A DNA stretch of 46,876 nt from the NCBI GenBank assembly GCA_937872085.1, contig CALMQK010000294.1:1-46876 (forward strand), given 5' to 3'. The notes beneath the pieces were generated by a model. That model saw only the letters and a list, made by a program, of their open reading frames with translations, made no database searches and had not been told where the DNA came from. This document shows positions 9,536 through 45,215 of the stretch, piece by piece (within the stretch, counting starts at the first letter, position 1; each line of letters opens with the position of its first letter). A program made the translations under genes and the position numbers. This DNA is from an uncultured euryarchaeote (GTDB lineage: Archaea > Thermoplasmatota > Thermoplasmata > UBA10834).

Positions 9536-9546
9536 CGATTTATAGA

Positions 9547-9562
9547 TTTAGGTATACCTAAA
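9547..9562. promoter_or_regulatory. Perfect 16-bp palindrome TTTAGGTATACCTAAA, a candidate metal-repressor operator of the FTR1 gene
   Basis: Located 12-27 nt upstream of the FTR1 ATG (9535) and downstream of a minus-strand TATTTAT box (9575-9581). Half-sites TTAGGT/ACCTAA resemble DtxR/IdeR-box half-sites. Confidence 0.4.
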
Positions 9563-9631
9563 CCTTTGTGCCTGATAAATAGCAGTCACAGCAGATGGCG
9601 GAGAAGGAAAGAGGTTCGATCGGACCAGAAT

Positions 9632-10105: not shown

Positions 10106-10253
10106 TAGAGTCCTCCCAAGGACGGTCATCTGGACTTGTGGCAAGATTCGTGGCTTTGGTCATAACCCTGCCCCCGCACAGGTGCTGGTCGGACACGGAT
10201 AGGTTCATCCTGAGGCCTGTCATACACCCCTTGCCGCGTGGGGGCCTGAACGG

Positions 10254-17996: not shown

Positions 17997-17998
17997 GC

Positions 17999-19327: not shown

Positions 19328-19329
19328 TC

Positions 19330-20292
19330 CTAAACGCCTCCCATCAGGTCAGCAAGGGCGTCCTTGAGTCCTGCCACCGCCTTCGGATGGCGCATCACGA
19401 CCATGTCCGCTCCAGCGACGAGCGCGGAGTACGCAGTGATCTTCTCCCAGTTCTGGCCCCTCAGCTCCGACCTCCCCTTATCCAGGCTCTCTTCCACCGC
19501 GTCCGGAACGGTCCAGGCACAAGAGCAGTCGCAAAGCATCGGCATCTGCAGGACCGGGTCCCCAGAAAGCGCGCTCTGCCTCAGCCGCTCGATCACCGAA
19601 TACGAGTACTCCAGCCCCATCCCCAGGGCCGCCATGAGAGGGTCCATGATGATGTTCTCGGGCTTCATGCCGAAGTCCAGCAACAGGATGTTCATCTGCT
19701 TCGCGAGGTTGATGTCAAGGTTGGAGAACGCGACGATCCCGTGGCCGTTTGCCATCGCGGCGGCGGTGATGGACTTGTACGCCTTCTCCTCTGCCTGTCC
19801 GAGAAACAGCTTCTCACCCTTCGCGGCGTTCGAGACGGCCTCCATGAGCTTGGCATCCTTCTCCTCGGATCCGCAGCCGTAGACGATGAGCGGCAGGGAT
19901 ACCGATTTCAGAACCTTCTGGACGAGCGACACGCACTCCTCCACCGGCCTGTTCTCCTCATCCGGGTTGGCGGAAAGAAGCCTCAGGAGCAGGACATCCG
20001 CGCCCCATTCGCTCTCGCACTTCCTCGCCCACTCGACTGGATCTTTGACGACGGGGCCCATCGAACTGACCAACTGATCAGGAACGACGCGCATCGTGTC
20101 GACTACGTCCATGGCCACGAGCGGCTTGTGAGGCATCTCGCTCTCGAATCTGTGGAAGGGTAGCCCGTTCGAGCCGCCCAGTACAAGTCTGACACTCCTG
20201 GTGCCACCCTGTTCCTTGGTGGCGCCTATCGCTACTTCCCGTATCCTTCCTTGAAATTTCTCTTTCGGCACTTCAAAGGCCATTCCCGTCAC
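19330..20292 (-). CDS. acsD: Corrinoid iron-sulfur protein, small subunit
   Basis: 320-aa TIM-barrel protein starting ...FQGRIREVAIGA..GGTR. It sits 2 nt upstream of acsC and 9 nt downstream of the CODH/ACS ORF. Confidence 0.85.
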   Translation of the reverse strand: MTGMAFEVPKEKFQGRIREVAIGATKEQGGTRSVRLVLGGSNGLPFHRFESEMPHKPLVAMDVVDTMRVVPDQLVSSMGPVVKDPVEWARKCESEWGADVLLLRLLSANPDEENRPVEECVSLVQKVLKSVSLPLIVYGCGSEEKDAKLMEAVSNAAKGEKLFLGQAEEKAYKSITAAAMANGHGIVAFSNLDINLAKQMNILLLDFGMKPENIIMDPLMAALGMGLEYSYSVIERLRQSALSGDPVLQMPMLCDCSCAWTVPDAVEESLDKGRSELRGQNWEKITAYSALVAGADMVVMRHPKAVAGLKDALADLMGGV

Positions 20293-20301
20293 CTCTGGTC
20301 T

Positions 20302-23300
20302 TCAAGTCATCATAGGAGGCATCCTCAGGGCTGGATGGTCCACTTTCACCAGCCAGTTGCTGAGCTCCTCAGGGGTCTTGGCGACCGTCTCATCGGCGAT
20401 CTTGCTCACAAAGTCTGGCACGCCTGCCTCTGCGGCCCTCTTGTTGAGCTCCTCCTTCATCGCCTCTTTCAGGTCCTTTGGCATCCAGACGATGCGCAGG
20501 AAGCCGCCGTCCGCGCTGATGAACTTCTTGCTAACAATGTATCTTCTCCCGACTCCGATGAAGCCGGGCATCTGCACCCCGCCCCCGATCGAGCCAGCGA
20601 GAGTCGAGAACGACATTCCGAGCGGGGTCATGCCGGAGTGCTCCCTGTTGACCACAACAACGCCCTGAAGATCCGGGGACACTCCGACGATGCACTCGAA
20701 GCATCCGCACGACGTCATCGGGTCCTCCATCATCGTGTATGCGCTGAACTTCTGCAACTTGCCGTGAGTCTTCTCTACAACGACCTCGTTCACGCCGCTC
20801 CACTGTCCCTTGACCGGGTCGATGGTCTCCTTCTTCGGGACCGGGTTGTTCGGGCCCGTCGGCGCGATCTGGAACGATGCTTTCGCGTCCAACCAGTTGA
20901 TGGCTCCGCAGAGGCCCAGCCGCTCGGGCGTGACTATGCACAGGTGGCCGGGCGCGAAGCTCTGGCAGAGCGAGCAGGTGTAGAACGTATCGACTCTCTC
21001 GTCGGTGAGGTCCGCGATCCTGGCGTCTCTCTCGGCATAAGACACCTTCGCCTCGTCGACATGCTTGCGCAGCTCTGCCTCATCTGTGATGATCGTGACT
21101 TCGATCTTCGAGACGATCGCGCCGAACTCCTGCTTCATCTTCGTGACGAGGATGTCCCCGAAGTGCTTCAGCCGCAATCCGGCCTTCACGGAGTTCTTGC
21201 TCAGCCTGATCCACAACAGGTTCCTCTGGCCCGTATGCCACGCGCCCTCGGCGAAGTTGGTGAACTGGTGTATCCTCCGCTCCAGGACCGACTCGAAGTC
21301 CTTCTGCATGTTCTTGCCGTAGACATTGACGAATATCCCCAGATGGATCGATGCCCCCTCCGCCATCTGGTCCACGTCCTTGCCAATGAGCGTGATCTTC
21401 CCGTCGTTGACCTCCTCTGCGTTCCTCATCTTGAGCAGTTCGAACGCGAGCGTCTTGGACGGACCGCCCGCCTCGATGTACATGTCCGGCCTGCGTATGG
21501 TCTCGCCCTCGAAAGCTGGCCCGTACGGGACTGGCAGGTCGATGGCTCCCAGCTTTATGTGGCAGCCCCTGACCTCGATCGCCGTGGAGATCATCTCGTC
21601 GAGGTTCTTCTGCACGACGTACTTGTCGGGGATGGGCTCAACATCTTGGTCGGTGATCGTCGGCGAGCCGTTGAACATCACAGCGAACTCGGCGGCCACC
21701 TTGATGTCATCGAGCGGCCCGAGCTGGAGGACGAACACCTTCGGCCTCTTCAAGAGATACTTGAGCAATCCCTCGCGGTCCCCCTTCTGGACTCCGCCGA
21801 ACGAGAGCGCCGCCCTGATCGCGAAATTCAGACCGTGTATTATCTGAGTGAACTCTCCGACGGGGTACAGCATCCGGTCGAGCCCCATCGCGATCTTCTC
21901 ATCCTTCAGCTGCTGGATTATGTCGTAGGTGGCGATGATGAGCATGCCCTTGTTCTGGCAGTCCCGGATCATCTTCGCCAGCTTCTTCGGGTCGCTCGCC
22001 TTGCCGACGAAGACGGCGGCGCCCGGGATCGTGTCGTCGACGAATGCGATCCCCAGCTGCCTCAGGATCCTGTCGGGGATGAAACCGCAGTACGGGGTGC
22101 CCTCGTATGGAGTCGGGGTCTCGATGTACTTCAGCGCCTCGACGACTTCCGCGGCTATCATCGTCGCCTCACCGGAGGCAATCGCCGACTCGAGCGTCGG
22201 AACCTCGTCGATCTTGCCCCTTGCTTCACCCATCAGCCTCGGCAGGTCCCCTAGCTTCGTGATGTCCTTGCCAAGCCACGCGAACAGGCTCGGCAGCTGG
22301 TAACCGGTTTCCGGGAACTCCACCTTCTTGTCAGGACCGTACTTCCGCAACGCCTTGTTCAAGAGGATGTCCGCATAACCAGTCGCGATGATGGACCCCT
22401 CGATGGCCATCTTGAATAGCTTCTCTTTCGGGATCCTGTCCTTCTGTGGAACGTACGATGATGCGCGCTCAAGCTCGGGGTCAGTGATGCCCAGCTTCCA
22501 CCGCCTGTACTCGATCGCTGAGTAGAGCCTCTTCGCAGCCTCCTTCGGGTCCGGTTCGAAGATGAAGTAGCCACCGTAGACGTCCCTCGCGGTGTTCTCC
22601 AGTACTTCCGTCACGAGGGTGCTTCCGTAAATGTAGTTGATCGTTCCGACGTGGACTGGAAAGCCCATCGCGACGGCCCATGTGCCGATCGAGACCGCCT
22701 TCTCGTGCATGGCCTCGGGCGCGATCGCGACGAACGGTATCTTGTCGATGTCTACGCCCATCCTGTTCGCAATCTCCGTCGCGAGGTTGGAGAATCTGGG
22801 ATTGTCGACGCAGGAGCCGATGTGCCAGACGCAGGGCAGGCCGCTCTTGATCCCGGCAGCCTCGCTGAGCTCGGTGAGGAAGGACTGGAGACCTTCTCCA
22901 GCCAACTCAGAGGTCTTCCCGGGGTCCATGAAGCCCGCCTTGGCCAACTCGATCGCGTTGCAGCCCGTCGCGAGGCAAAGCACGCCGTGCTTCGCGAGCT
23001 CCCGCGCGATCGTGAGCACGCCCTCATCGTCCTTGGCCCTGGTGCTCTTGCAGCCGGCGAAAAGTGCGACTCCCCTGACACGTCCGTTCACGAGGTTGTC
23101 GACCAGGAACTGGAATGGGTCGTCCTTGTTCTTCTTGGAGAAGAGCTCCTTGATCTGCTCAAGGCTGAATCCCGCGACGACCCTCGATGTCTTCACCGTG
23201 GGCAGGAGTTTGGTCTTCCCGCGGTGCTTGAAGGCCTCCGCGGCCATCAGCAAGATCTCCTTGGCCGACGCTCTGGCCCTGTCGGGCGTGAATTCGATGT

Positions 23301-24456
23301 GGGTGTCTCCGACAAGCCTCGCCGCTTCCTCGGTCGAGATCAATTTCGTGTGTGTGCAACGGGCGAGAGTGGACAGGGACGGCATGAAACACTGGTAGTC
23401 CAGGACCATCGCGTCAAGGAGCCCGCTCAAAAGCACAAGCTCCTGGTTGAGGACGTTTGCGGCGATCGGGACACCTTTGCGCATGAGGATCTCATTCCCC
23501 GTGCAACACACGCCGACGATGTTGAATCGGTCCGCGCCGACCTTCTTCGCTTCATCCTTCATCTCACGAGAGACATCGACCAGAATGTCGCTCAAGAGCG
23601 GGTTGTGGCCGTGGACCGCGACGTTGATCGACTTCTCGTCGAGCACCCCCAGGTTCGCCTCGCTGAGGACGAGCTTCGGCGTGCCGAAGAGGACATCGCT
23701 CAGGTCCGAGGATATCTGCGCACCCGCGTAGTCCGACAGAGCGCACTTTATCCCGCCGAAGAGAATCGGAATCGGGTCTGCGTCGACCCCCATCGAGGTC
23801 CGGTGCATGACATCCGAGATCGAGGTCTCGATGTTGGAAGGAAGGACCGCGTGTGTGTCCCAGAGGAGAAGCCTCCCCTTGGTCACCGTGGACTTCAGAA
23901 ACGAGAGCGGTTCGTCCGTGTATCTAGAGTAATCCTCGAGGGCCTCTATGGACACAAGTTCGGCGAGGTTCCCCTTTCCCTGGATCCCCAGGCGCTTGGC
24001 GATCGCCTCGAGCTTCTGGCTGTCCGTGACCTTGTAGTCCTTCGCCTCACCCTTGCTGACCGCGTGAAGGACATGTGCTATCTCCTTGCCGTGGGCGGAG
24101 TGCGCCGCAGCCCCGGCGGCGATCATCCGGTCGATGTTCCTCGAGACTATCGTGTAATCTCTTGCGCCGCACAATCCCGTCGTCGGCTCCTTGCCCATGG
24201 GATTGATCCTGCACGGACCCTGAAGGCAGATCCTGCAGCAGAGACCGAGCTCTCCGAACCTGCACTGCGCTCCCTGGTTCGTAATCCTGTCAGCATAAGT
24301 ATGGATGCCCGAGTCGTGAAGGCTTGTGAGCATGGAAGCGCAGCTGCTGTCCCAGCAGTCGCAAGCGAGTCCCTTCTTGGCCTCACCCTTGACCGGGGCG
24401 GACTTTGTCTTGGTGACCACTTCTGATTCCAAACTATACCACCTTGAGATGCCCAC
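20302..24456 (-). CDS. Fused Ni-CO dehydrogenase (AcsA/CooS-type) and acetyl-CoA synthase (full-length bacterial AcsB-type), 1384 aa
   Basis: N-terminal half: CRFGELGLCCRICLQGPCRI (B/D clusters) and C-cluster contexts HGHNP, VCCTGNE, GSCVDN. C-terminal half: AcsB N-domain (GYADILLNKALRKYGPDKKVEFPETGYQLP) and A-cluster motifs CSLCQSFAPGHLC...LCG and SCGCFEC. One uninterrupted frame. GTG start at 24456, or possibly the GTG at 24420. Confidence 0.9.
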   Translation of the reverse strand: MGISRWYSLESEVVTKTKSAPVKGEAKKGLACDCWDSSCASMLTSLHDSGIHTYADRITNQGAQCRFGELGLCCRICLQGPCRINPMGKEPTTGLCGARDYTIVSRNIDRMIAAGAAAHSAHGKEIAHVLHAVSKGEAKDYKVTDSQKLEAIAKRLGIQGKGNLAELVSIEALEDYSRYTDEPLSFLKSTVTKGRLLLWDTHAVLPSNIETSISDVMHRTSMGVDADPIPILFGGIKCALSDYAGAQISSDLSDVLFGTPKLVLSEANLGVLDEKSINVAVHGHNPLLSDILVDVSREMKDEAKKVGADRFNIVGVCCTGNEILMRKGVPIAANVLNQELVLLSGLLDAMVLDYQCFMPSLSTLARCTHTKLISTEEAARLVGDTHIEFTPDRARASAKEILLMAAEAFKHRGKTKLLPTVKTSRVVAGFSLEQIKELFSKKNKDDPFQFLVDNLVNGRVRGVALFAGCKSTRAKDDEGVLTIARELAKHGVLCLATGCNAIELAKAGFMDPGKTSELAGEGLQSFLTELSEAAGIKSGLPCVWHIGSCVDNPRFSNLATEIANRMGVDIDKIPFVAIAPEAMHEKAVSIGTWAVAMGFPVHVGTINYIYGSTLVTEVLENTARDVYGGYFIFEPDPKEAAKRLYSAIEYRRWKLGITDPELERASSYVPQKDRIPKEKLFKMAIEGSIIATGYADILLNKALRKYGPDKKVEFPETGYQLPSLFAWLGKDITKLGDLPRLMGEARGKIDEVPTLESAIASGEATMIAAEVVEALKYIETPTPYEGTPYCGFIPDRILRQLGIAFVDDTIPGAAVFVGKASDPKKLAKMIRDCQNKGMLIIATYDIIQQLKDEKIAMGLDRMLYPVGEFTQIIHGLNFAIRAALSFGGVQKGDREGLLKYLLKRPKVFVLQLGPLDDIKVAAEFAVMFNGSPTITDQDVEPIPDKYVVQKNLDEMISTAIEVRGCHIKLGAIDLPVPYGPAFEGETIRRPDMYIEAGGPSKTLAFELLKMRNAEEVNDGKITLIGKDVDQMAEGASIHLGIFVNVYGKNMQKDFESVLERRIHQFTNFAEGAWHTGQRNLLWIRLSKNSVKAGLRLKHFGDILVTKMKQEFGAIVSKIEVTIITDEAELRKHVDEAKVSYAERDARIADLTDERVDTFYTCSLCQSFAPGHLCIVTPERLGLCGAINWLDAKASFQIAPTGPNNPVPKKETIDPVKGQWSGVNEVVVEKTHGKLQKFSAYTMMEDPMTSCGCFECIVGVSPDLQGVVVVNREHSGMTPLGMSFSTLAGSIGGGVQMPGFIGVGRRYIVSKKFISADGGFLRIVWMPKDLKEAMKEELNKRAAEAGVPDFVSKIADETVAKTPEELSNWLVKVDHPALRMPPMMT

Positions 24457-34876: not shown

Positions 34877-36226
34877 ATGAAGATGCCCAAAGTTCCGAAC
34901 ATCAGAGTGGAGCCTCCGGGCCCGGAGGCCAAGAAGATCGTCGCAAAGGATGACGAGTACATTGTGAAGGCTACAAAGACCGCGCCTCTTGTCTTCAAGA
35001 AGGCGGAGGGATCAGTGATCGAAGACGTCGATGGAAACACCTACCTCGACTTCTATGCTGGGGTCGGCGTGCTCAACGTCGGCGCGAGGCATCCGAGGGT
35101 CGTAGCAGCCGTCAGCGACCAGCTCGGCAAGTACATGCACATAGCGGGGACGGATTTCTATGAGCCGCTCCAGGCTAGACTCGCTGAGAGACTAGCCAAG
35201 ACCGCGCCGGGCAATAACAAGAAGATGGTGTTCTTCTCAAACACGGGCGCGGAATCGGTAGAGGCCGCGATCAAGATCGCCAAGAGAGGAACTGGCAAGC
35301 AGTGCTTCCTGGACTTCCTCGGGGCGTTCCATGGGAGGACCACCGGGGCCATGACGCTCACCGCGAGCAAGTGGGTACAGAGGGAAGGTTACACCGCTAC
35401 GCTCATGCCGGGCGTCTTCCACGTGCCGTACGCCTATTGCTACAGGTGCATATACAAGATGGAGTACCCGAGCTGCGGAACATACTGCGCCAAGGTCATC
35501 GAAGAAGTCTACTTCGAGACCCAGATCCCGCCGAACGACCTCGCAGCGATCTGCATGGAGGTCGTGCAGGGAGAAGGCGGGTACGTCGTGCCGCCAAAGA
35601 CCTTCGTGAAGATGGTCTTCGACCTCACGAGGAAGTACAAGTGCCTGTTCATCGACGACGAGGTGCAATCTGGCATGGGCAGAACGGGGAAGATGTGGGC
35701 CGCGGAGCACTTCGACATCGCGCCTGACATCATCTGTTCTGCGAAGTCGCTCGGTGGCGGACTCCCGCTCGGAGCCACGATCGTGGATGCCAAGCTGAAC
35801 TTCGACAGGTATGGCCGGCATTCGAACACCTTCGGTGGGGTCTCGCTCGCGCACGCGGCCGCCCTCGCAACTCTTGATGTCATAGAGGATGAGAAACTCC
35901 TGGACCGCGGGACGAAGGTCGGGAAGGAGACCAAGAAGCGCCTCGAGGAGATGATGGAGAAGTACGACATCATCGGCGACACGCGTGGCCTCGGCATGAT
36001 GCTGGCGCAAGAGTTCGTGCAGGACAGGAAGACCAGGAAGCACGCCGCGAAGAGCCGGGACAAGATCGCGGACATGGCATTCAAGAAGGGCCTGATGCTC
36101 CTGCCCTGCGGAAAATCCGTCATCCGATACATACCCCCGCTCAACATACCGCAGGACCAACTGGATTCGGGCCTCGAGATCCTTGAGGACTGCATCAAGA
36201 CCGTGAACAGGAACAGGGCTGACTGA
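34877..36226 (+). CDS. Class III PLP-dependent aminotransferase (4-aminobutyrate/ornithine/acetylornithine aminotransferase family)
   Basis: PGPEAKK N-terminus, SNTGAESVEAAIK, DEVQSGMGRTGKMWA, and the Lys context CSAKSLGGGLP. Start set at ATG 34877 (MKMPKV). The 54-codon upstream extension in the track has no family counterpart. Confidence 0.85.
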   Translation: MKMPKVPNIRVEPPGPEAKKIVAKDDEYIVKATKTAPLVFKKAEGSVIEDVDGNTYLDFYAGVGVLNVGARHPRVVAAVSDQLGKYMHIAGTDFYEPLQARLAERLAKTAPGNNKKMVFFSNTGAESVEAAIKIAKRGTGKQCFLDFLGAFHGRTTGAMTLTASKWVQREGYTATLMPGVFHVPYAYCYRCIYKMEYPSCGTYCAKVIEEVYFETQIPPNDLAAICMEVVQGEGGYVVPPKTFVKMVFDLTRKYKCLFIDDEVQSGMGRTGKMWAAEHFDIAPDIICSAKSLGGGLPLGATIVDAKLNFDRYGRHSNTFGGVSLAHAAALATLDVIEDEKLLDRGTKVGKETKKRLEEMMEKYDIIGDTRGLGMMLAQEFVQDRKTRKHAAKSRDKIADMAFKKGLMLLPCGKSVIRYIPPLNIPQDQLDSGLEILEDCIKTVNRNRAD

Positions 36227-36252
36227 GCTCAAACTCTAGGGACTGACCGGCT

Positions 36253-36296
36253 GGGTTCGGATGTCCTCCGAACTCCAGCGGTCTTATCTTATTATC
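36253..36296 (+). terminator. Candidate terminator: hairpin plus T-rich tract
   Basis: 7-bp stem gttcgga/tccgaac (36255-36261 / 36267-36273) with a 5-nt loop, followed by tcttatcttattatct. It begins 27 nt after the aminotransferase stop. Confidence 0.35.
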
Positions 36297-36320
36297 TCGC
36301 GAACTGATTCTTCCCACATA

Positions 36321-36509
36321 ATGACGAACAGGCGAACGCAAGATGACAAGCTCGGCAGACTGGCGGAGATTGCTGTGCGTAACAGATACGACCCTGAGAG
36401 ATTGGCAGCCGTGAAACGGGTAATCTCTGGGAAAACAAGGTGCCCCGAGTGCGACGAATCGAACGGAGCCGATCAGGAGTACTGCAATCACTGCGGCGCG
36501 AGATTGTAA
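36321..36509 (+). CDS. Small zinc-ribbon protein (62 aa)
   Basis: C-terminal CPECDESNGADQEYCNHCGARL. The shorter start (ATG 36321) is chosen because the longer ORF overlaps the putative terminator hairpin. Confidence 0.4.
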   Translation: MTNRRTQDDKLGRLAEIAVRNRYDPERLAAVKRVISGKTRCPECDESNGADQEYCNHCGARL

Positions 36510-36556
36510 CCAGGGCATCGTGACAAGAAGAATATCTGAGGGATCCGAACAGAACG

Positions 36557-38719
36557 CTAGCGGCTTCGACTCTCCTTGAACTTCTTCAGCTCTTCCTCCA
36601 CCAGCGCCTCGTAGTCTTGAGTCTTGGCTGGAGGTGGAGCGACCTCCTTCTTCCGGTCTGGCGTACCCGTTCTCGCATCGATCTCCTTCGGCTCCTGTTG
36701 CCAGACCGCTGTCCTTATCGCGAGACCAATTACCAGCAGACCGAATCCGCCCCACAACGCGTTCATCATCGGAACGACTTTCATCTGCACCAGGGCCGTC
36801 GTGTTGCTCATCCACTGGAAGTCCAGATAGAGGTCGTTTGCCAGGGACTTGTAGACGTAGACCTCGGCGTCGACGACCTGGGTCTCCACACCTCTGATCA
36901 GGTAGAGGTCCGTCAGTACAAGGCCGGAACGGAGGGCGTGGCCGGACTTCATTACATCCATCGTGCCCTCTCGAACGGCATTCACGCTCGTCGCTCCCGA
37001 ACCTGAACTCACGTCGCTGGCAGTCAGTGCCACCAGCCGCACCGTGTAGTCACCGACCTTCGCCTCTTGGCCGAGAGACATCTCGATCGAGGTCGTGCCG
37101 CTCACGAGATTAGAAGGGAAGGACTGCATGTTCGTGGATATGATGAAACTCACAAGGACCATGGCGACGCCCAGGTGGATGAGGTGTGGGCTTGCTTTCT
37201 GAAACGTCTTCCTGGCGGAGCCCACGACCCGCGATCTCGCAAGCTTCACTATCGAGACCCCGAGCGCGACCGCATAGGCTGGAAGGCTGAAGGCGACGAG
37301 AGCATCGATCCAGCCGGTCACGGCGCCAACGACCCCTGCCGCGATCGATGCCACGATCAACCCCGAACCAAGATAGAACGCGATCTCCTTGCCGGTGAAC
37401 TTCCAGACCAGGCATATGCTCATGGTCGTCATCAATCCCACGAAGAATATGGACAACTTCTGGTTGAACTCCGCGTAGTTGGACCCCTGTGATGCGTTCA
37501 AGTTCTTGAACATGAGCAGCACCATCACAGCACTCGTGATGACGAGCAACATGACCGTCAACATCGTGTTGTTCTTGTCGCTGATGTACTCGCTCAGCTT
37601 CTCCGGCTCGGGTTGCTCTTCTGGTCTTTCCATGGTCCTGTACCGCGAATACGCCAAGAACACGGTCAGGGCGAACAGTGTCAACATGAGAGAGAAGATG
37701 CCAAGAATAGTGCCATCGTTCTGGAGCAGGTACGAAAGCCTCGCGCTGCCGCTGGTCCCTACCGAGCTCCCGAAATTGTGCACCGACTGGGCCCACACGC
37801 TGCCTGCGCGGGTGGCGAACGTTGCGAAGATGACCGCGACGAACGAAAGCATGCCCAGCACCGGGGACCAGAGCTTGTACTCCCCCTTCCTCGAATGTCT
37901 TACGACTGTGTGCAGGAAGGCGCTGGTAATCAGCCATGGCAGCAACGAGGCCGTCTCGACCGGGTCCCAGGCCCAGTATCCACCCCAACCGAGCACGTAA
38001 TATGCCCATATGGCTCCGACACCGATACCCAATGTGAGGAAGATCCAGCCAAGCCTGGACCATGGGAGCGATATCTTGAACCAATTCGGATCGTCCGAGA
38101 CAAGATAGGCGAGCGCTGCCGCGAAGGCGGCGACGCAGAAGGCGTACCCGGCGAACACCACTGGAGGGTGGAGCACCATCTCTGGGGTCTGAAGCAAGAG
38201 ATTCATCCCGTATCCGTTGGGCAACCATGTCTGATTGAAGCTGCCGGTCCTGGCGAAGAGGTCCATCTGCCAAAGCAGGATCATGAAGAGAGATATGATC
38301 GCCGCTACGGTCGCCTGGAACGCGCCATGGAACTTGCTGCCAAGGTACTTCCTCTTCGGCTCCAAAAGGACCTCGACCACGAGCACCAGGGCCATGAACC
38401 ATATCCAGAGCAGGAACGAGCCTTCCGCGCCCGCCCACACACCGGAGAGCTTGTACACCGCGCTCAGGTCCGTAGATGAGTTCGACCAGACGTAAAGGTA
38501 ATCCATGTTCGACGACAGGAAATAATCCGTTAGCAGCAGCAGAGCCGCGCTGATGGAGACGAATGTGAGGACGGATAGCACGACCGAGGCCTCCGTCAAG
38601 AGCCTGTCCTTGCGGCCCATGGCAAGCGTCCTAGCAAGAGCCGCGCCGATCGCGGCCAATGTTCCGATGACGATGAGGGATTCACCAGCGTCCATGTCTT
38701 CAGCCTCCGCTCGACTCAT
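36557..38719 (-). CDS. ccmF: Cytochrome c-type biogenesis protein CcmF (haem lyase component)
   Basis: WWD motif WGGYWAWDPVETASLLPWL. About 15 TM segments over 720 aa. Confidence 0.9.
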   Translation of the reverse strand: MSRAEAEDMDAGESLIVIGTLAAIGAALARTLAMGRKDRLLTEASVVLSVLTFVSISAALLLLTDYFLSSNMDYLYVWSNSSTDLSAVYKLSGVWAGAEGSFLLWIWFMALVLVVEVLLEPKRKYLGSKFHGAFQATVAAIISLFMILLWQMDLFARTGSFNQTWLPNGYGMNLLLQTPEMVLHPPVVFAGYAFCVAAFAAALAYLVSDDPNWFKISLPWSRLGWIFLTLGIGVGAIWAYYVLGWGGYWAWDPVETASLLPWLITSAFLHTVVRHSRKGEYKLWSPVLGMLSFVAVIFATFATRAGSVWAQSVHNFGSSVGTSGSARLSYLLQNDGTILGIFSLMLTLFALTVFLAYSRYRTMERPEEQPEPEKLSEYISDKNNTMLTVMLLVITSAVMVLLMFKNLNASQGSNYAEFNQKLSIFFVGLMTTMSICLVWKFTGKEIAFYLGSGLIVASIAAGVVGAVTGWIDALVAFSLPAYAVALGVSIVKLARSRVVGSARKTFQKASPHLIHLGVAMVLVSFIISTNMQSFPSNLVSGTTSIEMSLGQEAKVGDYTVRLVALTASDVSSGSGATSVNAVREGTMDVMKSGHALRSGLVLTDLYLIRGVETQVVDAEVYVYKSLANDLYLDFQWMSNTTALVQMKVVPMMNALWGGFGLLVIGLAIRTAVWQQEPKEIDARTGTPDRKKEVAPPPAKTQDYEALVEEELKKFKESRSR

Positions 38720-38847
38720 CGATGCGCTTCATTGCCCGCTAGCTCCTTCTTGTACGAGGCGCTGAGATTCCCGCAGACCTTGGCGTCGACCTTCCCCTTC
38801 TCCAGCGCCCTGTCGAGGGCGACGATGGCGTCCATCAGTTTGCTCAC
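38716..38847 (-). CDS. Candidate 43-aa ORF between ccmE and ccmF
   Basis: GTG at 38847 preceded by GGAGGG with 5-nt spacing. Its stop overlaps the ccmF ATG (ATGA). Translation: VSKLMDAIVALDRALEKGKVDAKVCGNLSASYKKELAGNEAHR. Too short for the ORF track. Confidence 0.3.
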   Translation of the reverse strand: MSKLMDAIVALDRALEKGKVDAKVCGNLSASYKKELAGNEAHR

Positions 38848-38892
38848 TGATACCCTCCTTGACAGACTGTCTTGAAATCGGATCACCGTCAC

Positions 38893-39282
38893 CTAGTACT
38901 TCGACGCGCAGCCAACGGTGAGATCGGTCGCGATCATGTGCAGGGACGGCACGTCATCGAGCTGCCCCTTCGCCCCGACGGTCTTGCCGTTCTCGAAACC
39001 CGATGGCAACGGCCCGGTCATCGTCACGTTGATGTTGCCACCCGAAGCCGCATTCGTATCGAACAGCGTGAAGTTCCTGCTCCCGGGGTCTCCGTTCCAG
39101 TCAGCAACAACCCCCCTGACCTCGATCGGTTTACCCGAGTATTGTGAAGGGCTGTGGACGACGTCGCTCACGGACAGGTAGTTCTGTCCACCAGTCGAGC
39201 TCCAGCCCCAGAAGACGACGACCAGGGCAGCCGCGATCACAACAAGGGCAACGATGACCTTCCTCTTGCGACGCCTCGACAT
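38893..39282 (-). CDS. ccmE: Haem chaperone CcmE, CXXXY variant
   Basis: N-terminal membrane anchor, OB-fold-like core (IEVRGVV...FTLFD), and a C-terminal CASKY in place of the HXXXY haem-binding motif. Confidence 0.8.
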   Translation of the reverse strand: MSRRRKRKVIVALVVIAAALVVVFWGWSSTGGQNYLSVSDVVHSPSQYSGKPIEVRGVVADWNGDPGSRNFTLFDTNAASGGNINVTMTGPLPSGFENGKTVGAKGQLDDVPSLHMIATDLTVGCASKY

Positions 39283-39322
39283 CGGTCGGGGCGGGCTGGG
39301 AAGTTCTGGGTTCGGGGGCGAA

Positions 39323-39475
39323 TCACTTGCCGTGCTTCGACACCTCCTCCTTGAGCATCTTGATGTCCTTGTCTATCCTGCGCTGCCTCAGGTACATGTA
39401 CCCGAGGAAGGAGAACAGGCCGAGCCAAACGATCGAATAAGCGACATACAACGCCGTCCACGAATCCGACATCAT
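39323..39475 (-). CDS. ccmD: Haem exporter protein CcmD (50 aa)
   Basis: Hand-translated: MMSDSWTALYVAYSIVWLGLFSFLGYMYLRQRRIDKDIKMLKEEVSKHGK. One TM helix followed by a basic tail. The ATG overlaps the ccmC stop (ATGA). Position between ccmC and ccmE is canonical. Confidence 0.6.
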   Translation of the reverse strand: MMSDSWTALYVAYSIVWLGLFSFLGYMYLRQRRIDKDIKMLKEEVSKHGK

Positions 39476-40596
39476 TCTTCATCTCCTATCTTACGCTTGA
39501 GTTCTTCCAATTCTTCTTCAGCTTCCGCAATCTCCACTCTCTTTATTAGCATTGTTATGAACAGGACCGTGAACGCGACGACCGCTATGCCTATGGTCAT
39601 GCCGGCCTGCGGGGACAGACTGCCGCTGCTGGTCGCGATGACCTGTGGATGGCTGGATTGCAGCAGCGGGGCCACTCTCGAGGACAGGAAACTCATCGGC
39701 ACGGTGATGAAGCTGAGTATCCCATAGACCGCGCTCACCCTGGCCTTCGCGCTCGGTTCGCTGATCGCGGCTCTCAAAGACAGATAGCCAATATAGACGA
39801 GCCAAAGGACGAAGGTCGTGACCAGCTTCATGTCGTCCCAGCGCCAATAGACCCCCCACTCCTGCCTAGCCCAGACTGGTCCGGTCGTGATGGCGATTGT
39901 AGCGAAGACTATACCAATCTCTGCAGAGGAATACGCCACTCTGTCGTACTTGTGATCTCTAGTCCTTAGAAAGAGGGCGCTTCCGACCAGTGTGACCCCA
40001 AATGAGAGGTAGCACGCCCACGCGGACGGCATGTGGAAGTAGAATATCTTCTGGGCGACAGGGGCGGTCATGAGCCCGAAGCTTCCCACCGAGCCAAATG
40101 TAATGTCATTTCCGCTTCCGCTTGAAAGCGAGAAGCCTGTCACGTTAGAATTCGGGGCAATCGTGTTTGAGGTGACGATGCCGTCCATTGACAGATTGGC
40201 ACCAACCACAATTACACCACCCAGGTTTGGACCCATGCGGGGATTCAAGCCTCCTGAGATTGACTTGATATCTATCGGTCGTACTGTCCACCATTGTTGA
40301 TTCAGACTATGGGTTGCATTGGCCTGCAGATATCGCCCGTAGTCACGGAAATCTGCAAGCGAGAAGATTACCTCATCTGGCCCGTCCAGCATACCGAAAT
40401 GGATAGAGTAGACAGCGGACACGAATCCCGCAACTTTGAGCTTTGATCCTTCCACCGAAGACAAAATCTCGCCTGCCGATTTCACGCCGGTTTGGGGCAG
40501 AGGAGCGAAAAAGACTGCAAGATAGACCGTCATCAGGATCAAGACGACGGAGACCACCACCAGAATCGTTCCCAGTTTCTTCCTGTCCATCCTCAT
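39472..40596 (-). CDS. ccmC: Haem exporter/haem-handling protein CcmC with a large inserted extracytoplasmic domain
   Basis: QKIFYFHMPSAW (first His loop) and WWD motif WARQEWGVYWRWDDMKL. At 374 aa it exceeds the usual ~250 aa because about 140 residues are inserted after TM1. Confidence 0.85.
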   Translation of the reverse strand: MRMDRKKLGTILVVVSVVLILMTVYLAVFFAPLPQTGVKSAGEILSSVEGSKLKVAGFVSAVYSIHFGMLDGPDEVIFSLADFRDYGRYLQANATHSLNQQWWTVRPIDIKSISGGLNPRMGPNLGGVIVVGANLSMDGIVTSNTIAPNSNVTGFSLSSGSGNDITFGSVGSFGLMTAPVAQKIFYFHMPSAWACYLSFGVTLVGSALFLRTRDHKYDRVAYSSAEIGIVFATIAITTGPVWARQEWGVYWRWDDMKLVTTFVLWLVYIGYLSLRAAISEPSAKARVSAVYGILSFITVPMSFLSSRVAPLLQSSHPQVIATSSGSLSPQAGMTIGIAVVAFTVLFITMLIKRVEIAEAEEELEELKRKIGDEE

Positions 40597-40597
40597 A

Positions 40598-41278
40598 TCA
40601 TCCCTCTAGCACGAAATCAAATGTCAGGTATCCGAGCACGGCGAAGATGGCGGCAAAGGCCGCCACGGATTCGATCTGCTGAACGGAGTCTCCAATCCCT
40701 CCCACCATTGCGTTCTTGGTCGCGGTGACAGAGGGCACGATCACGCTGAATGCGATCAATGGGATCAGCAGGATGGGCAGCAGGGCCTCGCGGGCGCGGG
40801 TGTTGACGGATATCGCCGCGACGAGCGTGCCAACGAGAACGAGTGTGACGCTCCCAAGCAATGCGAGCGCCACTACCGCGAGGGCTTGTCCACCATAGTC
40901 GAATGAGAAGAACAGCGCGAAGAACGCAATCGACAACAAGTCGACGAAGAAGACGACGATAAGATTGGACAGCGCCTTTCCGAGATACAAGTCGCTCCTG
41001 TCCACAGGCGCGAGCAATAGCCCATCAAGCGTCTCCCGGTCCTTCTCCTTGGCAAACGAGGTATACATCCCCAGGATCGCCGCGAACGAGAAACATATCC
41101 ATAGAGCGGAGGATGCCAGCTCTGGAAGCCCCACGGCTCCGGAATTCACAGCGTTTGAGAACCCGAACCTGAACGCAAGGACGATCAGGAGCGAGAACAG
41201 GAACATCGCGCTCAGCATCTCCTTCGACCTGAGCTCGACCTTCAGGTCCTTCGCCGCGATGATCAGAGCAGCCCTCAC
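40598..41278 (-). CDS. ccmB: Haem exporter permease CcmB
   Basis: Six-TM profile and the N-terminal AAKDLKVELRSKEML pattern typical of CcmB. It overlaps the ccmA stop by 4 nt. Confidence 0.8.
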   Translation of the reverse strand: MRAALIIAAKDLKVELRSKEMLSAMFLFSLLIVLAFRFGFSNAVNSGAVGLPELASSALWICFSFAAILGMYTSFAKEKDRETLDGLLLAPVDRSDLYLGKALSNLIVVFFVDLLSIAFFALFFSFDYGGQALAVVALALLGSVTLVLVGTLVAAISVNTRAREALLPILLIPLIAFSVIVPSVTATKNAMVGGIGDSVQQIESVAAFAAIFAVLGYLTFDFVLEG

Positions 41279-41988
41279 ACGATCCCCCCATCGGAGGAGG
41301 CTCGGTAGCCCGCTTCGAGCTCGCCCCTGGCGATGGACGCTCGATCGAATGACCGTTCGATCTTTCCACGGACAAGCACTTCGGCTCGATCGGCCAGCGA
41401 TGAAATCCTCTGAACATCATGCGTCACAATGAGAATGGAACAGCCCCTCGATCGCTCCTCCGCCAATATCTGCGCGAGCACCTCGTTCCCCTTCTCATCC
41501 AGGGAGGAGAAGGGCTCGTCGAGAAGGAGCACCTTGGGAGAATGGAGGATGGCTCTTGCTATCGCGAGCCTCTGACGCATCCCTTTGGAGAATACGGCGA
41601 CGCGGTCGTTCATCCTGTGGGACAGCCCAACGCGCTGAAGGAGCGCCTTGCCCGCGGCCTCGAATTCCTTTCGAGGCATGCCGTACAATGACCAGAAGAA
41701 CCTCAAGTTCTCGAGTGCCGTGAGGTCGTCGTACGTGTAGGTCGAGTGCCCCACCACCCCGATCGATCTCCTGGATATCACGGGATCATCGTACACGCTC
41801 TTGCCGTCGAGCAACACATCGCCCCGGGTAGGCTCGGCGAGCGTCGACATGATGCGCAGCAAGGTGGTCTTTCCCGCACCATTGGGTCCCATCAACGCGA
41901 TGATCTCGCCGTCGCCGATTTTCAGGTCGAGGCCGTTCAGGACAATGCGTCGTCCGAATCGCTTTGTCACGGTCATGGCATCTATCAC
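41275..41988 (-). CDS. ccmA: ABC ATPase CcmA
   Basis: Walker A GPNGAGKTT, signature-like FSKGMRQRLAIA, and Walker B LLLDEP. Confidence 0.9.
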   Translation of the reverse strand: MIDAMTVTKRFGRRIVLNGLDLKIGDGEIIALMGPNGAGKTTLLRIMSTLAEPTRGDVLLDGKSVYDDPVISRRSIGVVGHSTYTYDDLTALENLRFFWSLYGMPRKEFEAAGKALLQRVGLSHRMNDRVAVFSKGMRQRLAIARAILHSPKVLLLDEPFSSLDEKGNEVLAQILAEERSRGCSILIVTHDVQRISSLADRAEVLVRGKIERSFDRASIARGELEAGYRASSDGGIV

Positions 41989-42191
41989 TGATTGCCTCCC
42001 CTGGCTAGACCCTGAGAATCTAACTGCCGGTATATCATCCCTTTCAACCTCTTATGGTTAGGACCGAAATACAAGAGGGGGGAAGCGACCGCTAGCGATG
42101 TTGAAGAATGAAAGAAAGAGGGATGCTCAACCCTCCTTACCATTTCCCCCGGAGGGTACCGAGGCTTGAGGCCCGGGGGGCTATCACGGCG

Positions 42192-42215
42192 TTATATACC
42201 TGATGACTCATCAGG
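42192..42215 (+). promoter_or_regulatory. TATA box (TTATATA) immediately followed by a perfect 17-nt palindrome CCTGATGACTCATCAGG
   Basis: TTATATA at 42192-42198 and the palindrome at 42199-42215, within the 420-bp divergent spacer between ccmA and the CX3CH protein gene. The layout is TATA followed by an operator. Confidence 0.35.
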
Positions 42216-42410
42216 GCTAGGGCGCACGTGGAAACAACATGAAGACATTGTTTCGGCTGACCGCACGAAATGGACGGCCTTAGGCGGATTCGGATTCATT
42301 GCGTGCGAAGTGCAAACCGAATGCGGAGAAAGAGTAATAACGATGCAAGCAACTCGGTGGGCCGCGCAGTATAAGGACCGGTTTCAGAAGGAATTTGGGG
42401 AGTAAAGGAC

Positions 42411-43346
42411 ATGCGCTCGAAAGGAAGAATTGCATTTCTGACTATCATCTGCTTGTCACTCGTGACCGTCACGCTCGTCCCGTCGCTCTTGGCATCACCT
42501 GGCGGTGTAACGATCAAGAACCAGGAGTACTGCGGAGTATCTTGTCACAGCCAACCGAGCACTGCATCGCTAACGATGTGGGCGTCCGCGCAACAGGTCG
42601 CCCCTGGCGACCCATTGGAGGTCATTGTCAATGTCTCGGGAGGGCAGGCTGTCGGCATCCTCGGCGTGATGATCGTGTCGGTAAGAAGCCCAGTCGCTGC
42701 GAGCGTCCCGACGGCCAACGGATGGGTAATCACATCGGACCCTGGCGGAACCACCTTCAACTACTACGAGACCGCGACATACTCGGGATCAGCATCCATG
42801 CATTGGCAGCTGAACGCGCCGACGATCACAGGCTCCTACACATTGTATGCAAGGACGATGCACGGCGACGGCAGCGGAGACGCATTCTCGGCTGATTACT
42901 CAGCTGGCGTCACGTTCCTCGTCGCAAGCATAAGCACTGCTGGCCCGACCGTGTTCGTGACTGCTCCGGCGACTGGATCCACGGTGAAAGGTCTCGTCTC
43001 CGTCGAGGCGACCATCCTGGACAACGCCTCGATAACTTACGCCGTGCTGAAGCTTGACGGGGTGGAGATCGCGAACAAGACAACTGGACCGTTCACCTGG
43101 TCTCTCGAATCCACCATCTACAAGGATGGCGAGCACACGCTGAATGTGACCGCCGTGGATGTCAATGGGAAGGTCGGATATCACCAGATAACCATCACAA
43201 TAGGCAACGCCGCGCTCAAGAGCGGGTTGCTCCCTTGGATCTGGACGATGGCCGCAGGAACCGTTGCCATACTAGCTTGGGTCGGAGTCTTGATGGTCGT
43301 CGCACTCATGATACGCAAGAGACACATAGAAGGGGGGCTGAAGTAA
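42411..43346 (+). CDS. Secreted, C-terminally anchored protein with a single CX3CH motif and an Ig-like domain; candidate atypical c-type cytochrome
   Basis: Sec-type signal MRSKGRIAFLTIICLSLVTVTLVPSLLASP, then YCGVSCHS (C-x3-C-H) 12 residues after the predicted cleavage region. Beta-rich region, Ig-like repeat (VFVTAPATGSTVKGLVSVEA...HTLNVTAVDVNGKVG...ITITIGN), and a C-terminal TM helix followed by RKRH. Confidence 0.55.
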   Translation: MRSKGRIAFLTIICLSLVTVTLVPSLLASPGGVTIKNQEYCGVSCHSQPSTASLTMWASAQQVAPGDPLEVIVNVSGGQAVGILGVMIVSVRSPVAASVPTANGWVITSDPGGTTFNYYETATYSGSASMHWQLNAPTITGSYTLYARTMHGDGSGDAFSADYSAGVTFLVASISTAGPTVFVTAPATGSTVKGLVSVEATILDNASITYAVLKLDGVEIANKTTGPFTWSLESTIYKDGEHTLNVTAVDVNGKVGYHQITITIGNAALKSGLLPWIWTMAAGTVAILAWVGVLMVVALMIRKRHIEGGLK

Positions 43347-44030
43347 ATGGTGACGATGGCTGCTCTGCATGCGCTGACCGCCGAATTGCACGGTGGGATG
43401 CTGACTCTAGCGTTCTTCGCCATCGCGACCGTGGCATTGGCACAGATCACCGTGCGATTGAAGGACCATATGCCCAAGAGGCTCGTCAAGGCGGCGATTC
43501 AGGTTAGGGGGTACACGGAGGCGACGGGATACGTCGCCACGATTGGAGGTCTGGTGGGGCTGCTGCTATCTTCTTACACGGGAATGTACGCATGGCCGCA
43601 AGATGCCCTCATCAACGACCCTGTCGTCCAGAACAAGATTCTGCTGACGGCTTTCTCGACCGCCCTCTGGATCGGAGTGGCGATCATCAGGACGAGGTTC
43701 GGAAGGGGGTTATGGACATGCCCGGCGATGGCGACGCTCTACACAGCGCTCGCGATCGCTGCATTCGGCGTGGTCGGTCTGACTGGATCCCTTGGGGCAC
43801 ACCTCACCAAGGGAGGCAGCCTCCTGGATCCTTTCTGGGATTTCCTGCACATCGATGTCGCCGAGACCATGAGCCTCGCACCTGTGGCCGCTGTGCTTGT
43901 CGCGATGGGGAGCATGGTGGCCTTCGTCGTATCCTTGGCGATCGCTAGAAGATACGAGCTTTTCGGTGTCAAGCTCGAAGCGGAGACCTGCGGGAAGTAC
44001 TTCAAATGGGACGAGCCGAGGATCCCGTGA
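43347..44030 (+). CDS. Polytopic membrane protein (5-6 TM; His-containing, DUF2231-like pattern), translationally coupled to the CX3CH protein
   Basis: The ATG directly abuts the upstream TAA (TAAATG), with GGGGGG 9 nt upstream. Motifs LHALTAELHGGMLTLAFF and GSLGAHLTKGG lie in or near TM helices. Confidence 0.5.
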   Translation: MVTMAALHALTAELHGGMLTLAFFAIATVALAQITVRLKDHMPKRLVKAAIQVRGYTEATGYVATIGGLVGLLLSSYTGMYAWPQDALINDPVVQNKILLTAFSTALWIGVAIIRTRFGRGLWTCPAMATLYTALAIAAFGVVGLTGSLGAHLTKGGSLLDPFWDFLHIDVAETMSLAPVAAVLVAMGSMVAFVVSLAIARRYELFGVKLEAETCGKYFKWDEPRIP

Positions 44031-44246
44031 AGGGCATGTTCTAGGAAGCCGATCAAAGGTATGTCGCCCCGGTTGCCCCCATACCAGGCGGACCCAGCGG
44101 TCAGCTGACGGAATATCGACATCAGAGCCTGGCTCAGTAAAGAACCGGACGGAGGGCTGATCGTGGCACCACATGTACCACCCGATGACGTTACAGAACC
44201 ATGGGCTCACAAAGGATTTCTACCCGCCAACTCTACCGGAACTAGC

Positions 44247-45215
44247 ATGCCGAACCTGAACGTTGCAGTCCTCGGATCTCCGGAATACGCAAAAGGGCTC
44301 GGGAAGATATCGACGGCTTCCGACATTACCTTCTACGACATGAAGCAGGGCGAAGTGACGGTCTCCCTCGTCGAGCCCACGAAGTACCCCGAGAAACTCG
44401 CCCCGCTCTTCTACTCGACTTCGCTCGCGGACGTCGCCATCGTCGTCGTCGACGAGCTGGGCCCGGCCTTCGGTGAGACCGCGATCATGCTCGACTGCGT
44501 GGGCGTGAAGAAAGGATATTTGGTCCTCAGGAACTACATCGCGCCCGAGCAGATAGCCCCGTTGACGAAAGGCACCGTCCTCGAGGGGTACATCACAGTG
44601 AACGATGATCCCCTCACTCTCAGAGAGACCCTCCTCTCGGAGGCTAGGAAGTTGGTCCCGGAAGAGCCAGATGCGAAGAACCACGCAGGTTCCGTACCCG
44701 TGGACCACTACTTCGATGTGAAGGGTGTCGGAACCGTCGTCCTGGGATGCGTTGCAGAGGGGACGATAAGAAAACACGATTCCGTCAAGGTCCTGCCTTC
44801 GGATAAGCAGGCGGAGATAAGGTCCGTCCAGAAGCACGATGACGATTTCGATTGGGCGGTCCAAGGCGACCGGGTCGGGTTCGCGCTCAAGGGAGTCTCG
44901 ATCGAGGACCTCGACCGTGGGACTGTCCTGACGAACAACGGAGCCATCATCTCCCGCAGGACCATAACCGGACGGGCAGAGCTGGTGAAGTACTGGTCGA
45001 AACCCTTGGCCGTGGGTATGGTTGTGCATCTCGGACATTGGATGCAGTTCGAACCTGCTAGGATAGAATCCGTGGACGTTGGGGATGACTGGAGGGCGCC
45101 CATGCTCACGCTGTCTCTCCAGAAGGACCTCGTGTACATCCCGGGCTCGAAGGCGGTCGTCACCCACCTTGAGGGATCGAAGCTCCGTGTAGCCGCGACC
45201 ATCACGCTGCAGTGA
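44247..45215 (+). CDS. EF-Tu/SelB-like translational-GTPase-fold protein with degenerate G motifs
   Basis: Domain II/III-like beta-barrels (VDHYFDVKGVGTVVLGCVAEGTIRKHD, VGFALKGV..DLDRGTVL). The P-loop position reads GSPEYAKGLGK and no NKxD is seen. Start at ATG 44247. Confidence 0.65.
   Translation: MPNLNVAVLGSPEYAKGLGKISTASDITFYDMKQGEVTVSLVEPTKYPEKLAPLFYSTSLADVAIVVVDELGPAFGETAIMLDCVGVKKGYLVLRNYIAPEQIAPLTKGTVLEGYITVNDDPLTLRETLLSEARKLVPEEPDAKNHAGSVPVDHYFDVKGVGTVVLGCVAEGTIRKHDSVKVLPSDKQAEIRSVQKHDDDFDWAVQGDRVGFALKGVSIEDLDRGTVLTNNGAIISRRTITGRAELVKYWSKPLAVGMVVHLGHWMQFEPARIESVDVGDDWRAPMLTLSLQKDLVYIPGSKAVVTHLEGSKLRVAATITLQ

Follow-up and report, generated by a model that had tools for sequence, protein, structure and literature searches.

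Whether a protein with a single Cys-x3-Cys-His (CX3CH) site on an immunoglobulin-like (Ig-like) scaffold can be a c-type cytochrome, and whether a neighbouring cytochrome c maturation (ccm) operon serves it, is the question raised by a locus of an uncultured euryarchaeote (GTDB lineage Archaea; Thermoplasmatota; Thermoplasmata; UBA10834). The window analyzed is the whole stretch of 46,876 nucleotides of contig CALMQK010000294.1 (GenBank assembly GCA_937872085.1, positions 1 to 46,876 of the forward strand), and the element in question is a pair of adjoining open reading frames, ORF1 and ORF2, which point away from a ccm operon. A first-pass annotation made from the letters alone had suggested that ORF1 is a surface-exposed monohaem protein wired to a membrane partner, possibly a haem b protein, and that the pair is the likely client of the adjacent variant Ccm system. 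On balance, comparison with relatives moderately favors the view that ORF1 is an Ig-like, structurally undescribed kind of monohaem c-type cytochrome, with a remote DUF2231-like membrane protein as its partner. The parts of the pair are as follows (TM, transmembrane; aa, amino acids).

42411-43346, plus strand: ORF1, 311 aa, predicted exported and C-terminally anchored protein
42411-42494, plus strand: signal-peptide-like N-terminus of ORF1 (residues 1-28), judged by eye from the sequence; a helix at residues 4-26 of the AlphaFold2 model agrees
42495-42935, plus strand: N-terminal domain of ORF1 (residues 29-175), motif arm and Ig-like beta-sandwich
42531-42548, plus strand: C41-G-V-S-C45-H46, candidate covalent haem-attachment site
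42861-42863, plus strand: codon of His151, candidate distal haem ligand
42945-43202, plus strand: Big_7 bacterial Ig-like domain of ORF1 (PF17957)
43209-43310, plus strand: C-terminal TM helix of ORF1 (AlphaFold2 model and alignment)
43344-43349, plus strand: TAAATG stop/start junction of ORF1 and ORF2 (TAA 43344-43346, ATG 43347-43349)
43347-44030, plus strand: ORF2, 227 aa, five TM helices, remotely DUF2231-like
43368-43370 and 43389-43391, plus strand: codons of H8 and H15 in the N-terminal LHxLTAE(L/M)HxG motif of ORF2, which also includes E13

The Cys-His site of ORF1 and its domain family

ORF1 runs from a signal peptide through the CX3CH arm, a beta-sandwich and the Big_7 Ig domain to a TM helix. 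Its N-terminus reads MRSKGR, about 20 hydrophobic residues and then LLA and SPGG, between which the probable cleavage site lies; the CGVSCH motif follows about 13 residues past this signal-peptide-like segment, which places it on the extracytoplasmic side. An AlphaFold2 model built on 21 homologues (mean predicted local distance difference test score, pLDDT, 78) is folded into two beta-sandwiches (residues 47-171 and 180-264) with a helix behind them (267-308), and residues 179-246 match Pfam Big_7 with 47.7 bits, above the gathering cut-off of 24.1, the nearest match of this domain in the PDB being the fibronectin type III (FnIII)-like modules of CbhA. Sequence, model and Big_7 match thus bear out the earlier description of ORF1 as a protein with a signal peptide, a CX3CH motif near the mature N-terminus, a beta-rich region, an Ig-like domain and a C-terminal TM anchor. 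The anchor is unusually conserved, with W276, M280, G283, A286 and I287 invariant in the 21 aligned homologues, and probably packs against ORF2.

A search of 5.8 billion proteins with ORF1 returned no more than 31 relatives: about 27 of them align with most of the protein and the others with the Ig domain only; those that bear a name are Thermoplasmata. C41, C45, H46, M56 and H151 are invariant in the 21 aligned homologues, down to 41% identity, and because C45 and H46 are identical in all of them, the C45-H46 motif is more than a chance occurrence. Among more distant homologues taken from genomic loci only C45-H46 is truly fixed. C41 is gone in three lineages: the site reads YDNGQPSCH, with a single Cys, in locus L011, which lies beside a complete ccm operon, and GA(T/A)SCH, again with a single Cys, in L002/L003 and L019. 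Other spacings also occur, such as CX4CH in L017 and CX5CH in protein P0009. A second and far longer ORF1 paralogue of about 826 aa with a CGSSCH site was seen in L015 (14283-16763, plus strand), about 4 kb downstream of the primary pair.

The N-terminal domain has no Pfam family and gave only weak matches of the Ig, CARDB or MG2 type. Against NCBIfam NF041895 ('choice-of-anchor V') it scored E 1.7e-8 and 34.7 bits, below the curated cut-off of 42, aligning over profile positions 4-139 of 150, and 15 of the 21 homologues match the same profile (best E 8.4e-12). By this profile similarity the domain is a related but sub-threshold branch of choice-of-anchor V, and the wider family shows the variety of anchors to be expected from NF041895 and NF041894 (MXAN_6652 family). 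NF041895 has no assigned function, no paper on the choice-of-anchor V family was found in the literature searched, and literature searches returned no description of the ORF1 domain family either.

A profile of the N-terminal domain, searched against 1.84 billion representative proteins at E <= 1e-3, gave 172 clusters, in nearly all of which the domain begins at residue 25-40, right behind the signal peptide. Its members come from many uncultured Thermoplasmatota, among them the abundant Poseidoniales (marine group II), and from bacteria with type IX secretion system (T9SS) anchors; across the family the anchors comprise TM helices, PEF-CTERM, PGF-CTERM and T9SS signals. Motif spacing was tallied over 136 near-full-length domains, with the following numbers of clusters.

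CX3CH: 67 of 136
CXXCH: 19 of 136
CX5CH: 10 of 136
CxxH without CH: 10 of 136
CX1CH: 9 of 136
CX4CH: 8 of 136
other motif: 7 of 136
single CH: 6 of 136

Conservation in this family is 94% for His46, 85% for Cys45 and 73% for Cys41. The median cysteine count per domain is 2, the motif cysteines normally being the sole ones, and no extra CXXCH motifs or ordinary multihaem domains were found fused to members of the family. The Cys and His residues are a conserved functional site, which bears out the first-pass annotation in this respect. A covalent haem site is favored over a fixed metal chelate or a redox dithiol because the Cys-adjacent His is locked while the spacing of the second Cys varies, and because the same position displays CX1-5CH motifs that often take the canonical CXXCH form. 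Laboratory work of Allen and Ferguson is reported to show that the Escherichia coli Ccm system tolerates CX3CH and CX4CH spacing, which also counts for this view. The strongest single piece of evidence for a haem site is, in our view, locus L026, which belongs to a separate lineage with other flanking genes (Mbh/Mrp-like); there the pair is still divergent from ccmA, and ORF1 carries C-S-N-C-H, a canonical CXXCH.

Conservation of the motif and of distal Met or His ligands had been proposed as a check on the haem assignment, and the outcome is mixed: C45-H46 stood, C41 did not in three lineages, and Met56 gave way to His151. Met56 is rejected as a conserved distal ligand, since no more than about 40% of the wider family have Met there, the others having L, I or V. 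Position 151 is His in 65% of the family and Tyr in 15%; His151, invariant in the clade, is therefore the better candidate.

ORF2 and the genomic setting of the pair

ORF2 begins at the base right after the ORF1 stop codon, as first noted, and its ATG is preceded at a distance of a few bases by a purine-rich GAAGGGGGG. The TAAATG junction indicates translational coupling of the two genes. In every readable Thermoplasmatota locus an ORF1 homologue stands directly before an ORF2 homologue, the two abutting or overlapping in most loci and separated by no more than 9 bases in all. Judged from this gene order, ORF1 and ORF2 are an obligate, translationally coupled pair in the Thermoplasmatota loci examined. 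An apparent ORF1-ORF2 fusion in L017 proved to be an artefact of a masked run of N. Outside Thermoplasmatota the N-terminal domain has other partners (L021, L025), and two members there, L021 with CXXCH and L024 with a T9SS anchor and CX5CH, lie 1-7 kb from multihaem cytochromes.

The five to six TM helices first claimed for ORF2 became five long helices in the model (residues 4-37, 44-82, 92-124, 126-154 and 179-202; mean pLDDT 86). By the positive-inside rule the N-terminus with LHALTAELHGG probably faces outward and the KWDEP tail the cytoplasm. The search with ORF2 found 135 relatives, the named ones all being Thermoplasmata, Thermoplasmatota, Methanomassiliicoccales or 'Methanobacteriota' metagenome-assembled genomes, and no Pfam domain was found in any of the 135. 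Among the invariant residues are H8, E13, H15, Q33, R54-G55-Y56, E58, W83, K97, R115, G119-R120, W123, P126 and W221-E223-P224. The Pfam profile DUF2231 (PF09990), which stands for a function-less domain predicted to span the membrane with four helices, matched 6 of 27 ORF2 relatives weakly (best 18.8 bits, E 0.0018; gathering cut-off 26.4) and did not match the ORF2 of the window itself. In the three relatives with alignment ranges the matches are colinear from the N-terminal His through the fourth TM helix, one of them pairing residues 8-151 with profile positions 5-129 of 139. ORF2 differs from DUF2231 in its extra fifth helix and KWDEP tail, and all scores are sub-threshold. DUF2231 for ORF2 and choice-of-anchor V for ORF1 are the closest families that bear a name.

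The suggestion that ORF2 holds haem b found no support in the comparison. The two His residues of LHALTAELHGG are invariant, whereas the His of GAHLTKGG, on which the suggestion also leaned, is replaced in P0119, P0128, P0133 and P0140. H8 and H15 cannot sandwich one haem because they are seven residues apart on the same helix, and no two conserved His residues lie on different TM helices, so that a bis-His haem b cytochrome is not supported for ORF2. A PDB sequence search with ORF2 found nothing, and Foldseek gave nothing significant; its matches to STEAP1, designed porphyrin binders, FdnI and CcsBA all had E >0.3 and are not used as evidence. A haem or other cofactor may lie at an ORF2 dimer interface or between ORF1 and ORF2.

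The ccm operon of the window lies divergently upstream of the pair and is composed as follows.

36557-41988, minus strand: variant System I operon, complete, with all ccm genes intact
41275-41988, minus strand: ccmA
40598-41278, minus strand: ccmB
39472-40596, minus strand: ccmC
39323-39475, minus strand: ccmD(alt)
38893-39282, minus strand: ccmE, CXXXY type
38716-38892, minus strand: gene remnant of 58 aa between ccmF and ccmE
36557-38719, minus strand: ccmF
41989-42410, no strand: divergent intergenic region between ccmA and ORF1, with a breakpoint near 42123, the site of a missing cytochrome gene

Because CcmE ends in GCASKY, the system is of the variant type, which agrees with the first reading of the operon. 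CcmC has 374 aa, of which the Cytochrom_C_asm profile covers residues 181-308 only; about 140 extra residues behind its first TM helix form a long extracytoplasmic insert that is kept in L005. Between ccmC and ccmE lies an ORF of 50 aa with a single TM helix, conserved in L005, L008, L011 and L015, and genes of 49 aa (L022) and 44 aa (L026) are called at the same position. With NCBIfam TIGR04391, 'CcmD family protein', these ORFs score 31.5-41.2 bits, above the cut-off of 24, so the ORF at 39323-39475 looks like an archaeal CcmD. All sequenced archaea have been stated to lack CcmD (PMC9084895).

Upstream context was tallied over about 19 distinct loci that were informative. At 9 of them the pair is divergent from a ccm operon, which is full in the window, L005, L008, L011, L015 and L022, represented by ccmABCDE in L026, and seen in part at contig ends in L006 and L014. 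At 6 further loci (L004/L016, L009, L010, L017, L018, L023) a lone ccmF takes this place, and its product keeps the WWD motif and the following His; neither ccmABCDE nor a multihaem gene was found locally at these six loci (up to 10 kb). Downstream of the pair, many loci share a conserved EF-Tu/SelB-like gene.

The pair lies beside ccm genes in a clear majority of loci, but the idea that it is the likely client of the adjacent Ccm system is weakened by a further neighbour. In the seven relatives that have more than a lone ccmF upstream of the pair (L005, L006, L008, L011, L014, L015, L022), a cytochrome of 8-9 haems lies between ccmA and ORF1 in 7 of 7. The two copies inspected in detail, those of L005 and L022, contain an fn3 domain, and the one of L005 is an 8-haem protein with a terminal TM anchor. 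Blastn colinearity of the window with L005 (81-88% identical) revealed that exactly L005 7023-8776, the multihaem gene, is gone from the window, together with the interior of the gene for a 598-aa membrane-anchored protein (L005 2121-3730), which has left the 58-aa remnant in frame. Since L022 too has a gene at both positions, loss in the lineage of the window is the likely direction. The window retains every ccm gene intact despite the loss of the neighbouring multihaem gene, whose product would be the obvious local client; this is compatible with ORF1 being a remaining client.

The haem reading and its rivals

In the arrangement that we infer, which extends to haem attachment, ligand identity, physical contact of ORF1 with ORF2, and the role and direction of electron transfer, ORF1 would be exported by the Sec pathway and lose its signal peptide, leaving a short N-terminal arm with Cys41-x3-Cys45-His46. 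The adjacent variant System I (CcmABC, CcmD-alt, CcmE and CcmF) would attach haem to this arm through thioether bonds, with His46 as its proximal ligand and, probably, His151 in the neighbouring Ig-like beta-sandwich as its distal one. The Big_7 domain would act as a spacer, and the conserved TM helix would anchor the protein. ORF2, made by coupled translation, would pair with this helix, exposing the conserved His8, Glu13 and His15 on the outer face of the membrane and its conserved tail to the cytoplasm, so that the two proteins may constitute an extracytoplasmic redox module anchored in the membrane of a Thermoplasmata archaeon that lives anaerobically and has the Wood-Ljungdahl pathway.

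Several observations weigh against this arrangement. An exported CXnCH site, conservation of the motif and a maturation system in the same genome are all present, as in a c-type cytochrome, but ORF1 resembles no Pfam or NCBIfam cytochrome family and, by PDB sequence search and Foldseek, no solved cytochrome: sequence and profile searches of the PDB with ORF1 and its N-terminal domain matched the Ig domain only, and Foldseek with the full-length model returned generic two-domain Ig/FnIII matches (RbmA, CbhA modules, Fabs). The search for known relatives proposed in the first-pass annotation thus found none among cytochromes, and the motif arm itself has pLDDT <50 in the AlphaFold2 model. To our knowledge, CX3CH as the default spacing of a whole family would be unprecedented; the 9 CX1CH clusters, the roughly 10 C-x-x-H clusters without CH and the single-Cys sites of L011, L002/L003 and L019 fit poorly as well, System I being thought to cope poorly with single-Cys sites. 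No distal ligand is universal, given the share of His and Tyr at position 151. The expected local co-occurrence with ccm also has its gaps, with none in the available sequence at four loci: no ccm gene lies near the pair in the 10-kb flanks of L001/L012 and L020, and none in the upstream flanks of L002/L003 and L019, only 1-2 kb long. Locus L001 is a chromosome of 1.4 Mb, and L020 is Candidatus Poseidonia alphae of marine group II, in which ORF1 has the site QCGGACH and the ORF2 homologue of 185 aa keeps H8 and E13, with Thr in place of H15. Moreover, the adjacency is partly one synteny block, running from an aminotransferase gene and ccmF through the pair to the EF-Tu-like gene, and so may be partly inherited or historical rather than selected, and other clients of the ccm genes may lie elsewhere in the genome. 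As a separate observation, two AhpC/TSA-redoxin genes follow the pair in the Methanomassiliicoccales-like metagenome-assembled genomes of L002 (3728-4742) and L003 (3663-4713), whose site reads GATSCH, and a TauE-family gene precedes it; these redoxin neighbours may point to a thiol-redox context.

Could the site bind something other than covalent haem? ORF1 might be a non-haem surface protein whose C41, C45, H46 and H151 bind Cu, Fe or Zn, or whose cysteines form a structural disulphide, with ORF2 as an anchor or transport partner; we regard this as rather unlikely. It would suit the fold, a generic sandwich of Ig, CARDB or MG2-like type such as adhesins and metal chaperones also have, the NCBI name of the related domain, which is only 'choice-of-anchor V', the existence of C-x-x-H and CX1CH variants, and the pairs found without ccm nearby; a ligand set of two Cys, two His and a Met also recalls CuA and Sco sites. 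Yet a His directly after Cys in 85% of the family is the signature of haem c, the Cys-Cys spacing of 1-5 and the loss of C41 do not suit a binuclear or chelate site of fixed geometry, M56 lacks conservation, orthologous pairs beside ccm show the canonical CXXCH, and no cupredoxin or metallochaperone profile matched. A CuA/cupredoxin site in particular was considered and rejected, as it needs a fixed C-x3-C-x3-H-x2-M, an upstream His and a cupredoxin fold, whereas ORF1 has CX3CH followed by M56, variable spacing and no profile match. Non-covalent or covalent haem binding for capture, storage or sensing, with ORF2 transporting haem or iron or transducing a signal instead of carrying electrons, appears improbable. 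Haem is bound by some Ig-like domains, such as NEAT domains, in which Tyr is the ligand, position 151 is Tyr in 15% of the family, and the conserved charged cytoplasmic residues and KWDEP tail of ORF2 could signal or gate; however, the neighbours are cytochrome-maturation and multihaem genes rather than uptake systems, and ORF2 matched no transporter or sensor domain.

The pair might also belong to the maturation machinery rather than to its clients, as an archaeal stand-in for the missing CcmH and CcmI or as a haem-handling partner of CcmF, an explanation to which we give little credence. The way in which archaeal System I makes up for its lack of CcmH and CcmI is an open question (PMC9084895), which counts in its favor, as do the six genomes in which ccmF and the pair stand side by side with the WWD motif kept and with ccmABCDE and a multihaem gene locally absent. 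A variant, equally doubtful, is that CcmF, ORF1 and ORF2 are a conserved functional triad, in which the pair would be an archaeal-specific partner of the haem lyase CcmF; the outer-face His/Glu/His of ORF2 could, for example, hand haem or electrons to CcmF in place of CcmH and CcmI. Alternatively, the triad might be a minimal, self-contained system maturing its own Ig-like cytochrome. On the other side, C41 is lost in L011 beside a complete ccm operon, which leaves no conserved redox dithiol; the N-terminal domain occurs in many architectures and with many anchors (PEF-CTERM, PGF-CTERM, T9SS) where neither ORF2 nor ccm is close by; the ccm locus L027 has no such pair; and Methanosarcina CcmABCEF suffice in another host (PMC9084895). 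A CcmH-like thiol-disulphide component was rejected as a candidate, as there is no invariant Cys pair (C41 being absent in L011, L002/L003 and L019) and the spacing runs from 1 to 5.

Other genes, related systems and significance

The first-pass annotation had stated that no other protein of the window carries a CXXCH-type site, and for credible genes this is so. Other CX2-4CH strings in a six-frame scan are confined to short ORFs without a family match and to frames that shadow real genes: opposite the FTR1 and cupredoxin-like genes, where a 314-aa plus-strand ORF with a CX4CH string is their shadow frame, opposite RACo, on the far strand of the aminotransferase gene, and in a 206-aa ORF (36195-36815) that overlaps ccmF on the same strand in a different frame. 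The remaining features of the window are listed here.

8675-10144, minus strand: FTR1-family iron permease adjoining a small cupredoxin-like protein
15301-24456: Wood-Ljungdahl gene cluster
15301-17244, plus strand: RACo, corrinoid activator
17999-19327, minus strand: CdhD with an N-terminal Fe-S motif
20302-24456, minus strand: fusion of 1384 aa of carbon monoxide dehydrogenase (CODH; Prismane) and acetyl-CoA synthase (ACS) beta domains
44163-45215, plus strand: EF-Tu/SelB-like protein, in which domain 2 alone is recognized, with no GTPase-domain family reported

The Wood-Ljungdahl cluster characterizes the host as an anaerobe.

Haems on odd spacings are known as rare exceptions at one haem, CX3CH and CX4CH in some multihaem cytochromes and CX15CH in MccA. 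The ORF1 family resembles these in having Cys-xn-Cys-His on an exported protein with an adjacent System I operon, whereas theirs is one haem of a helical or multihaem protein and ORF1 would be a monohaem beta-sandwich with CX3CH as the default and no match in sequence or fold. A parallel in layout is offered by Cyc2, a fused monohaem cytochrome-porin, and cytochrome f, in which the haem sits on a short N-terminal segment against a beta-rich body; like ORF1 they have a signal peptide, a haem motif about 15-25 residues from the mature N-terminus and an all-beta domain. There is, however, no detectable homology: the body of Cyc2 is an outer-membrane barrel and a ligand in cytochrome f is the N-terminal amine, whereas the body of ORF1 is an Ig-like sandwich and its anchor a TM helix. 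For the pair as a whole, cytochrome b558/566 of Sulfolobus (CbsA-CbsB) may serve as a working analogy, as an archaeal operon for an extracellular, C-terminally anchored monohaem protein and a polytopic membrane protein. The likeness lies in architecture; CbsA binds haem b non-covalently, and no Ccm is involved.

If haem is bound covalently, ORF1 and its relatives would constitute a new class of c-type cytochrome, with an N-terminal haem arm on an Ig-like sandwich and CX3CH as the rule, and their natural CX1-5CH and single-Cys variants would offer ready material for testing the rules by which archaeal System I accepts its substrates. The obligate pairing with ORF1 would also be a first functional clue to DUF2231-like membrane proteins. 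Censuses of cytochromes based on CXXCH would miss most of this family and may thus underestimate the extracellular redox capacity of archaea.

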